Below, piece after piece: positions 41,248 through 41,850 of a stretch of 64,000 bases of DNA (positions are counted from its first letter, which is position 1; each line of letters starts with the position of its first letter). Source of the DNA: Cytophagales bacterium. Lineage in GTDB: Bacteria; Bacteroidota; Bacteroidia; Cytophagales; Spirosomataceae. A program made the translations under genes and the position numbers. Under the pieces are notes generated by a model. It was not told the DNA's origin, made no database searches, and was given only the letters and a program-made list of their open reading frames with translations. The DNA is taken from the NCBI GenBank assembly GCA_038327655.1, contig JBBQLG010000004.1, positions 32,302 through 96,301 on the forward strand, in the 5' to 3' direction.

Positions 41248-41612
41248 TGATTTATGTATTAAGTGAACGGGTAATGCTTATGACAATCAGCCCGAAGCTT
41301 CCCCGGTAGCTAAAGCGGAAGTCTGCCTGGCGTTTGCTTTGGTACACTGGTGCTGACCAAAATCGAGCTGGCGGTGGGGTGAACGGTCGCTACGGCTTCC
41401 GCCCCATCCCTGACCAGCGTCTTTTTCCGGTCAGTTACAGCGTACACCCCACAATGGCGGCACAGACCTGCTGGCTCGGGCTACTCGGGTCGCCGGGGCG
41501 ACTGCTGCATCCGGGTAAGCTCAGGACACAACCGGATAGCTTCTGACTGACAGTTAACCTAAGGTGACCTGTTTTACAAGTGGTCAACTTTTCCAACCAA
41601 CGGATCAACGGA

Positions 41613-41690
41613 ACAGGTTGATAGCGGGATTCGAACCCGCATTCAGGTGACAGAAACAATCCATAACCAACAGTATATCCAAAGCCAGCG
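41613..41690 (-). ncRNA. tRNA-like element (T-arm plus D-loop-like segment, no anticodon arm); possible Y-RNA-like ncRNA, tRNA pseudogene or att-site remnant
   Basis: Minus-strand RNA reads ...GUUGGUUA...(23 nt)...GCGGG-UUCGAAU-CCCGC-UAUCAAC. There is a perfect T-stem-loop with consensus T-loop, an upstream D-loop-like GUUGGUUA, and a 3-prime acceptor-like strand that can pair with downstream GUUGAU. No complete cloverleaf; lies in a 600-bp ORF-free interval. Confidence 0.4.
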
Positions 41691-41850
41691 GCTGCGAACA
41701 CTATGGGGCTATCCGGAAACCCGCATCTGGTTTGGTCATCGACGTTTTTATCGCAACGGCGAACCGTCCTCACAAAGGTTGTTGGCTACTGCGCAGTGTT
41801 TTTGCGTAGTAGAAATTATTTTCTATTTTTCTTAAAAATCTGAGTTCCCG

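Follow-up and report, generated by a model that had tools for sequence, protein, structure and literature searches.

The window analysed here, a stretch of 64,000 nucleotides (nt) from a Cytophagales bacterium of the Spirosomataceae (GenBank assembly GCA_038327655.1, contig JBBQLG010000004.1, positions 32,302 to 96,301), carries a tRNA-like hairpin on the minus strand of the 603-nt gap that has a gene for a WYL-domain transcription regulator on one side and a gene for a Band-7/SPFH protein on the other. Comparison of related sequences shows that this hairpin, flagged in a first-pass annotation of the DNA, is the tRNA-mimicking centre of a structured RNA of ~470 nt (~41752-41287, minus strand), and that this RNA forms the 5′ leader of an operon of the Band-7/SPFH gene and rtcB. 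Covariance models have further matches in ~80-100 Bacteroidota loci, in the corresponding place ahead of Band-7, and the element always lies on the same strand as that gene and directly 5′ of it. The earlier annotation had assigned the hairpin to an rtcB/WYL intergenic region; the region is in fact that between the WYL and Band-7/SPFH genes, with rtcB one gene further downstream, and the order WYL, RNA, Band-7, RtcB of the window also occurs in relatives.

Comparative evidence for a structured leader RNA

The comparison is based on 133 loci, referred to below by L numbers, that were collected by way of the Band-7 protein: 80 from species genomes, 44 from metagenome contigs and nine from look-ups of the exact protein, including one short contig that carries the window's own gene. 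Almost every locus contains one or two T-arm-like hairpins 350-470 nt ahead of the Band-7 start, which differ in their stems by compensatory changes and are not called as tRNAs by ARAGORN. A covariance model of the T-arm, acceptor hairpin, D element and S1 hairpin (R1), built from 16 Spirosomataceae loci with the window excluded, has a sole significant match in the window (41562-41644; 77.7 bits, E ~3e-23) and, of 100 sources searched, detects the element in most, where it is expected ahead of Band-7. A second model (R2), which describes the 5′ domain without the T-arm and was built from 10 loci, again excluding the window, matches positions 41641-41756 (87.7 bits, E ~1e-25) and 78 further loci, reaching Chitinophagaceae and Flavobacterium. 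The marks by which this Bacteroidota Band-7 leader RNA is recognised, namely the R1 core, the R2 5′ domain and an H-type pseudoknot (UGACC/GGUCA), are thus all present in the window, and the comparative alignment that the first-pass annotation had recommended reveals compensatory changes in the leaders of relatives. The parts of the RNA in the window are as follows:

41649-41752, minus strand: 5′ domain, made of helices P_a and P_b and hairpins H1 and H2 (RNAalifold on 11 window-type loci)
41752-41748 with 41653-41649, minus strand: P_a, the closing helix of the 5′ domain
41737-41732 plus 41729-41727 with 41673-41665, minus strand: P_b
41726-41718 with 41710-41703, minus strand: H1 hairpin
41701-41690 with 41686-41675, minus strand: H2 hairpin, with conserved flanks CAUAGU/UAUGCUG
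41624-41640, minus strand: T-arm GCGGG-UUCGAAU-CCCGC, the counterpart of T-arm 2 in full-length relatives
41604-41623, minus strand: closed acceptor-like stem-loop (U-AUCAAC, loop CUGUUCC, GUUGAU; seven positions, six pairs)
41593-41603, minus strand: mini D-arm (CC 41603-41602, loop GUUGGUU 41601-41595, GG 41594-41593), in the slot of the relatives' full D stem-loop (UAGCUCAGUUGGUAGAGC)
41565-41590, minus strand: H-type pseudoknot made of S1, S2 and an A-rich linker, found in nearly all loci
AAGU 41590-41587 with ACUU 41581-41578, minus strand: pseudoknot S1
loop UGACC 41586-41582 with GGUCA 41569-41565, minus strand: pseudoknot S2
41577-41570, minus strand: A-rich linker of the pseudoknot, GUAAAACA
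41287-41550, minus strand: 3′ domain, made of long-range closing helices and inner helices (RNAalifold on 16 loci)
41550-41546/41291-41287, 41543-41538/41299-41294 and 41536-41534/41303-41301, minus strand: closing helices of the 3′ domain

The observation from which the analysis started, a minus-strand T-stem of five base pairs (bp) with a consensus loop, is borne out: the T-arm lies at 41640-41624 and is unique in the window, where the pattern of five Watson-Crick pairs ending in G around a UUCRANY loop, sought on both strands of the 64 kilobases, occurs once against a mean of 0.045 by chance (200 first-order Markov resamples). Its stem takes 21 distinct forms among 90 loci, and its pairs 93-95 with 107-109 covary in alignment A4, a plain MAFFT alignment of 36 diverse sequences on which RNAalifold was run without a supplied structure. 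The acceptor-like 7-mer that follows (UAUCAAC, 41623-41617) pairs, as had been proposed, with GUUGAU (41609-41604) across a 7-nt loop, and the resulting stem stacks directly on the T-stem. Pairing of at least 5 bp between the 7 nt past the T-arm and the next 22 nt is found in 86 of the 90 loci but in 31% of cross-locus pairings, and the compensatory variants of this hairpin in relatives include ACCAC/GUGGU, AUCAGC/GCUGAU and UUAG.C/G.CUAA. Next comes the mini D-arm, whose CC, GG and GG columns are invariant (alignment A3); the same CC-N3-GG-N2-GG pattern recurs in an unrelated reduced lineage (L105-L107 and L122). CC-GUUGGUU-GG, downstream of the acceptor hairpin, is the true homologue of the D element, which we read as having a putative 2-bp stem and a possible contact between its GG and the T-loop. 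The window thereby retains the "top half" of a tRNA, made of 5 + 7 stacked T/acceptor positions plus a possible elbow.

Upstream of the T-arm, the 5′ domain is 95.2% paired over the 11 window-type loci, with compensatory changes in 19 of 38 pairs; over 79 sequences it is 93.5% paired and 28 of 33 pairs are compensatory, with a covariation of 0.53 compared to 0.19 after shuffling and 0.06-0.11 with the partners slid. This domain also accounts for what had been taken for a common D-loop core 23 nt upstream of the T-stem. The sequence in question, GUUGGUUA at 41671-41664 on the minus strand, is present at that spacing, but its identification as a D-loop did not survive: it lies within the 3′ strand of the long-range helix P_b (41664-41673), the partner of which is UGACCAA (41738-41732), continuing as UGACCAA(AC)CAG through to 41727. 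Because all six pairs of P_b show compensatory changes across the 79 loci, for instance CCGG/CCGG in L006, the D-loop reading was rejected.

Downstream, the pseudoknot falls within the span of the R1 match, and its S1 is 92.8% paired. S2 was assessed by cross-locus complementarity, as unequal linker lengths put the MAFFT columns out of register; it takes 42 distinct complementary combinations of loop and 3′ segment in 58 loci, reaching at least 5 bp in 40 of them compared to 18% for loops matched with the 3′ segments of other loci. Over 16 loci the 3′ domain is 90.3% paired, with 28 of 39 pairs compensatory and a covariation of 0.45 against 0.23 after shuffling. Its closing helix reaches at least 11 bp in 28 of 59 loci versus 7% of cross-locus pairings, and its last conserved helix stops 40 nt short of the Band-7 AUG.

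The thermodynamic fold of the single sequence (311 nt; z = -1.37) is uninformative, and the case for the structure rests on comparison. The CCUGUU of the acceptor loop (41616-41610) is complementary, in the window only, to the AACAGG where the pseudoknot linker meets the start of S2 (41574-41568). Single-sequence folding prefers another structure as a result of this complementarity, which is not kept in relatives and is therefore probably due to chance.

As the first-pass annotation had stated, the window copy lacks an anticodon arm and no full cloverleaf can be drawn: ARAGORN calls neither tRNA nor transfer-messenger RNA (tmRNA) in the window, which by the same program has no tRNA genes, and Rfam 15 gives no match at gathering score. 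The covariance-model and tRNA searches it had suggested accordingly return no YrlA, tRNA or tmRNA above threshold in the window. A permissive Rfam scan of 41200-42000 yields as its tRNA-clan match the 17-nt T-arm alone, as tmRNA (15.8 bits against a gathering score of 47), and the bare T-arm also matched a plastid motif. A tRNA gene was consequently rejected by ARAGORN and Rfam, there being no cloverleaf and the acceptor strands being joined by a 7-nt loop, and so was tmRNA, which ARAGORN does not find and whose Rfam match is confined to the sub-threshold T-arm. Nor is the module a free-standing small RNA gene, as it forms the centre of a conserved structured leader of ~470 nt. An open reading frame of 112 amino acids across the region (41435-41773) was rejected as protein-coding, since the leader varies in length by 1-2 nt and by a ~65-nt unit among close relatives and the region covaries as RNA.

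Modular forms of the leader and its gene neighbourhood

Full-length members carry two tRNA-like units followed by the pseudoknot, flanked by conserved 5′ and 3′ domains. In the structure that RNAalifold predicts from alignment A4, unit 1 consists of an anticodon-like closing stem, T-arm 1, closed acceptor hairpin 1 and D-arm 1 in a four-way junction, an order that is the one described for YrlA and corresponds to a circularly permuted tRNA; unit 2, past a short linker, is made of T-arm 2, closed acceptor hairpin 2, D-arm 2 and a complete anticodon arm. Beyond unit 2 lies a hairpin, typically AGAAG-N7-CUUCU, whose loop forms the H-type pseudoknot with a segment past the A-rich linker. Together the two units and the S1 hairpin are 96.1% paired, with 33 of 40 pairs compensatory, and their covariation of 0.615 compares to 0.210 after shuffling (0/500 as high) and 0.08-0.14 with partners slid. 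A long-range "true tRNA" acceptor pairing between successive units, obtained by alignment to the Rfam tRNA model, was rejected in favour of the local closed acceptor hairpins, which are in register with the T- and D-arms, are predicted by RNAalifold and show compensatory changes.

The anticodon loops of unit 2 look normal, with 7 nt, mostly a U at the second position and a purine after the triplet, and they present at least 18 different anticodon triplets across loci, among which GUU, AAG, GUG, GAA and ACG recur. The loop occupies columns 160-177 of alignment A4 (for example, L009:3650-3672), and the D and anticodon arms of the unit look as if borrowed from different tRNA types, such as Leu-like and Asn-like. 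Loops so varied could serve as bait for anticodon nucleases.

The reduced version found in the window is common to L002, L004, L006, L082, L118, L126, L128, L129, L132 and L133; in the same genera, unit 1 is kept as a clean block of ~65 nt in L001, L003, L083, L112, L130 and L131. Of these, L129 is Spirosoma radiotolerans and L130 is Spirosoma linguale DSM 74. This block, which comprises one anticodon-stem strand, T-arm, acceptor hairpin, D-arm and the other anticodon-stem strand, is present or absent in the manner of a cassette in Larkinella and Spirosoma. Resemblance to an authentic tRNA, which ARAGORN and the Rfam tRNA model do not find in the window, is encountered in L014, L022 and L023. 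L014 has no long leader: behind the operator and −7 box described below it carries one cloverleaf resembling tRNA-Tyr(GUA), whose variable arm is long (L014:3826-3990) and whose end is 30 nt from the Band-7 AUG; L022 and L023 are similar by ARAGORN calls and T-arm positions (T-arm of L023 at 3943). Other Cytophagales (L017, L052 and L053) have the leader with a tRNA-Tyr gene immediately ahead of it.

The genes and promoter elements around the leader in the window are as follows:

40102-41247, minus strand: Band-7/SPFH (slipin-family) gene, 381 amino acids, Pfam PF01145, AUG at 41247
38444-39985, minus strand: rtcB (RtcB RNA ligase), 513 amino acids, Pfam PF01139 (E = 8e-85), second gene of the operon, after Band-7
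41851-42921, plus strand: WYL-WCX transcription regulator gene, 356 amino acids, Pfam PF13280 and PF25583, divergent from the leader
41786-41812, unstranded: palindrome CTACTACGCAAAAACACTGCGCAGTAG resembling an operator, with two half sites of the TGCGCA type spaced by 7 bp, separating WYL gene and leader
41773-41780, minus strand: −7-like box AACCTTTG (minus-strand reading AACCUUUG), with invariant C-TTTG columns in the alignments
41756-41767, minus strand: 5′-terminal hairpin ACGG-UUCG-CCGU, read from the sequence

In all aligned Spirosomataceae loci the palindrome is near-invariant as CT(A/G)CGCAAAAA(C/G)ACTGCGCAG, and the same 27 bases were also flagged by an inverted-repeat scan. It sits in the −33 region of the leader promoter, beside the divergent WYL gene, and is also present ahead of the tRNA-only variant L014 (L014:3826-3860); it is probably the operator of the WYL/WCX regulator. 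The −7 promoter consensus of Bacteroidetes is TAnnTTTG, and transcription is predicted to start, probably, a few bases downstream of the −7-like box. The promoter used by the Band-7-rtcB operon appears to overlap the conserved operator beside the divergent WYL gene. A promoter scan of the region in the window detected no sigma-70 promoter, and no terminator-like site was found in the window between the RNA element and the Band-7 AUG. The hairpin unit at the 5′ end of the leader, GACGG-UUCG-CCGUU, occurs in tandem copies, with one in the window, two in L129 (L129:1930-1975) and three in L128 (L128:1965-2030), and a different hairpin takes its place in L118 and L132. A weak Rfam match to IMES-2 over the operator, promoter and first hairpin (22 bits against a gathering score of 54.7) was treated as chance.

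Across the 133 loci RtcB lies downstream of Band-7 on the same strand in 86, and a WYL regulator is found in 50, in all of which it is divergent. Among the 97 full-length loci, 27 keep the RNA and Band-7 with no RtcB in the fetched flank, which ties the RNA first of all to Band-7. In L128 (Spirosoma agri), leader and Band-7 stand with no RtcB in the fetched flank, and an opposite-strand glycoside hydrolase gene follows Band-7. In many Chitinophagaceae-type loci, 5-18 canonical tRNA genes form a same-strand array ~1.5-3.5 kilobases upstream of Band-7 (L010, L011, L015, L018, L035, L041, L047, L052, L054, L057, L058 and L060 among them), and the order in Chitinophagaceae is tRNA array, RNase H-like protein (PF04308), AAA ATPase, leader, Band-7, DinB and RtcB, a neighbourhood that looks like an island combining tRNA supply with repair. 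Near the rtcB end of the operon, the window also contains a RelB-like/ParE toxin-antitoxin pair (37354-37898, plus strand) and a gene for the chaperone ClpB (34693-37341, plus strand).

The closest homologues of the Band-7 protein are "slipin family" proteins of Spirosoma, Larkinella and Fibrella, with further homologues across Bacteroidota. No membrane helix is predicted in it, the best 19-residue hydropathy window scoring 1.37. Its AlphaFold model (mean predicted local distance difference test score, pLDDT, of 78) consists of N-terminal β repeats, an SPFH domain and a long helix. The matches of this model to stomatin, HflK/C and prohibitin are confined to the SPFH domain and helix (~230 columns), and the only whole-length structural matches are to the major vault protein (454-481 columns, TM-score 0.40-0.44, ~12% identity); this is a resemblance of fold and does not amount to evidence of a cage.

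Relation to known RNAs

Among described RNAs, the leader element fits best the Band-7-associated tRNA-like RNA (b7a-tRNA) of Burroughs and Aravind (2016), who, as quoted in bioRxiv 10.1101/312249, predicted b7a-tRNA next to RtcB and YrlA next to Band-7. That RNA was unvalidated as of 2018 (bioRxiv 10.1101/312249), and no later literature on Band-7/RtcB RNAs was found beyond the YrlA structure preprint. As far as the secondary description of b7a-tRNA goes, both are predicted non-coding RNAs beside a Band-7/SPFH gene in an RtcB operon, as found in the window, the tRNA mimic was proposed there as the RNA partner of the Band-7 protein, and the L014-type loci hold an authentic-looking tRNA in the same promoter slot. 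By the same description the window copy differs in having no cloverleaf, its tRNA parts being limited to a T-arm, an acceptor stem that is closed and what is left of a D-loop, and in that its mimic lies inside a pseudoknot-containing RNA of ~470 nt and several domains. A tRNA mimic beside Band-7 and RtcB, as the quoted prediction indicates, had already been predicted in kind by computation in 2016. As far as we have seen, what is new is its place inside a conserved multi-domain ~470-nt RNA with an H-type pseudoknot and modular variants, part of which may stand in the 2016 paper, and, on sequence comparison, the window copy as a minimal natural version that would define the indispensable core. 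Rfam 15 has no family for the large ~470-nt leader.

The first-pass annotation had pointed to YrlA, the bacterial Y RNA, as the closest parallel, and this suggestion captures part of the picture. YrlA is ordered as T, acceptor and D stem-loops (bioRxiv 10.1101/312249). Like YrlA (RF02553; PDB 6CU1), the window RNA has a T stem-loop followed by a closed acceptor stem-loop with no free CCA end, and it belongs to the closed-acceptor class of tRNA mimics encoded in RtcB operons; moreover, the units of L009 match the YrlA core (35 bits, E = 7e-6, positions 23-87; 29 bits, E = 3e-4, positions 30-81), at scores below the gathering value of 69 and with the Ro-binding ends (positions 1-22 and 88-114 of 114) unmatched. 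The window, in contrast, has no YrlA match at E ≤ 10 and lacks the D-stem and the closing anticodon-like stem, both of which full-length relatives possess; the Ro-binding part goes unmatched in relatives too. Further differences are that the leader comes with neither a Ro-binding helix nor, among the reading frames scanned, an rsr gene, its partner gene being Band-7, and that its modules are internal to a much larger RNA, whereas YrlA is a free RNA of ~110 nt. No Ro60/TROVE protein was found among 13 scanned open reading frames of at least 380 amino acids (of 17 such frames in the window).

Other large or tRNA-like RNAs share individual features with the leader. The tRNA-like domain of tmRNA likewise combines a consensus T-arm, a D-loop analogue without a proper D-stem and no anticodon arm with a pseudoknot that follows, but the leader has no tag reading frame and a different genomic context; since its acceptor stem is closed by a loop, it also has no chargeable 3′ end, unlike tmRNA. 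GOLLD and ROOL are large "ornate" bacterial non-coding RNAs, often near tRNA genes. With them the leader shares a length in the hundreds of nucleotides, a pseudoknot alongside numerous covarying helices, and tRNA genes near many relatives; it differs in lacking an Rfam match, be it to them or to another family, in its phylum range and in being fixed as the 5′ leader of one gene. Vaults are protein shells with which small structured RNAs are associated, and the Band-7 protein, modelled with β repeats, an SPFH-like "shoulder" and a long helix, recalls their shell protein; vault RNAs, however, are not tRNA-like in this way and are bound via TEP1 rather than the shell protein.

Possible functions and significance

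We give an even chance to a reading, drawn by analogy with other tRNA-shaped RNAs and their protein partners, in which the leader RNA acts as partner or scaffold of a Band-7 oligomer and presents a tRNA-shaped handle to proteins that recognise tRNA. The RNA, made together with the Band-7 protein, would assemble with a cytosolic, vault-protein-like SPFH oligomer, in a partnership that would parallel that of Ro60 with YrlA. The resulting particle would display a tRNA elbow or minihelix, in which the GG of the mini D-arm could dock on the T-loop, and so recruit or occupy tRNA-recognising proteins; the displayed shape might engage RtcB while it repairs cleaved tRNA or rRNA, or else act as a decoy for toxins that cleave tRNA, and nucleic-acid damage would lead the WYL regulator to turn on the operon. 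A decoy role has been raised for YrlA (PMC7790460). A product that acts in trans is favoured by the L014 type of locus, where a slot filled by a plain tRNA-like cloverleaf suggests that it encodes a tRNA-shaped product rather than a switch, and by the way in which tRNA-like units come and go among relatives while the 5′ domain, pseudoknot and 3′ domain stay. A more far-reaching version, which we regard as possible but doubtful, is that the whole ~470-nt leader belongs to an undescribed class of large structured RNAs, common across Bacteroidota and without an Rfam 15 entry, that forms a vault-like RNA-repair particle with a membrane-free SPFH protein and displays interchangeable tRNA modules. 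Equally tentative is the detail of that version, in which there would be no, one or two modules, each bearing a live-looking anticodon loop or lacking one, and these would act on RtcB and tRNA-cutting toxins as docking sites or decoys.

Several points weigh against the partner or scaffold role and the structure on which it draws. With neither D-stem nor anticodon arm, the window copy mimics a tRNA only in its acceptor/T minihelix and, putatively, an elbow. Covariation cannot be brought to bear on the pairing of the mini D-arm, whose bases do not vary. The 84-nt core folded alone is no better than shuffled sequences (z = -0.83), and its fold, the T-arm aside, does not give the comparative structure. 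Moreover, the structures used for alignments A5 and A6 came from those same alignments, which favours them in the controls, and the TM-scores to the vault protein (0.40-0.44) are modest. The transcription start, the co-transcription of leader and Band-7 and the contact between RNA and protein are themselves predictions, and the constant cis position 5′ of Band-7 fits a cis-regulatory leader equally well.

Such a leader, a 5′ untranslated region that senses the tRNA pool or RNA damage and tunes the translation or stability of the Band-7-rtcB message, is a possible though unlikely explanation of the locus. It could bind RtcB, Band-7 or damaged tRNA, or its anticodon loop, where present, could be cut by a nuclease and rejoined by RtcB. 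It would account for an RNA that always lies on the same strand directly upstream of Band-7, with no terminator-like site in between in the window, that measures ~520 nt and is conserved until ~40 nt before the AUG, and whose relatives show at least 18 "anticodons", as expected of fast-evolving bait for anticodon nucleases; the rtc operon of Salmonella, in addition, is controlled by damaged tRNA halves (PMC7790460). Yet no expression platform was found, either as a terminator/antiterminator pair or as a start-codon helix, an absence that weighs little in Bacteroidetes, where the signals for translation are ill defined; in the window copy an anticodon loop that could be cut is lacking; and L014-type loci, which swap the whole leader for a tRNA-like gene 30 nt before the AUG, are hard to square with a switch. 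Y RNAs, too, lie inside an operon, that of rsr and rtcB, and nevertheless act in trans (bioRxiv 10.1101/312249; PMC7790460). An improbable alternative takes the mimicry as a signal for maturation only, RNase P or RNase Z cutting at the T-arm/acceptor minihelix, as happens to tRNA-like elements of other long transcripts, to split off the 5′ domain and so fix where the mRNA ends. In the window the acceptor stem comprises seven positions, with G first on its 5′ strand as in real tRNAs, Mycobacterium smegmatis YrlA with its 7-bp acceptor stem is an RNase P substrate (bioRxiv 10.1101/312249), and the true cloverleaf ahead of Band-7 in L014 would certainly be excised. However, the covarying 5′ domain, pseudoknot and 3′ domain would be left unexplained, and the closed acceptor stems of most relatives, at 4-5 bp, are of a kind considered poor RNase P substrates (bioRxiv 10.1101/312249).

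That the element is a genuine YrlA-type Y RNA, binding a Ro60 (Rsr) protein encoded elsewhere in the genome, is very improbable: the succession of T stem-loop and closed acceptor, the match of the L009 units to positions 23-87 and the proximity of rtcB speak for it, but the window has no match at E ≤ 10, L009 reaches 35 bits against 69 with the Ro-binding stem unmatched, the scanned reading frames hold no TROVE protein and the constant neighbour is Band-7. The origins that the first-pass annotation had considered as alternatives, decay of a tRNA gene or duplication of a tRNA 3′ end at the attachment (att) site of an integrative element, retain next to no probability. Although what can be recognised of a tRNA in the window is its 3′ third alone and a toxin-antitoxin pair lies nearby (37354-37898), decay is refuted by an element that keeps its distance from Band-7 and covaries in ~100 genomes, while the att reading fails because the T-arm/acceptor 24-mer does not recur in the window, up to three mismatches included; the flanks, moreover, are conserved structured RNA and not tRNA remnants.

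In summary, the minimal variant in the window separates what this RNA can do without, namely the D-stem, the anticodon arm and the whole first unit, from what is kept, namely the 5′ domain, the T-arm with its closed acceptor stem, the pseudoknot and the 3′ domain. Together with its ~100 relatives it provides an RNA model backed by covariation, with exact helices, a pseudoknot and a likely WYL operator, which makes binding, processing and knockout work straightforward in cultivable Spirosoma or Larkinella. The locus bears on the question of what bacterial RtcB acts upon and what role tRNA-shaped RNAs such as YrlA and b7a-tRNA play in RtcB operons; should a particle of this RNA with a vault-like SPFH protein prove to exist, bacterial RNA repair would be linked to the vault and Ro ribonucleoproteins of eukaryotes.

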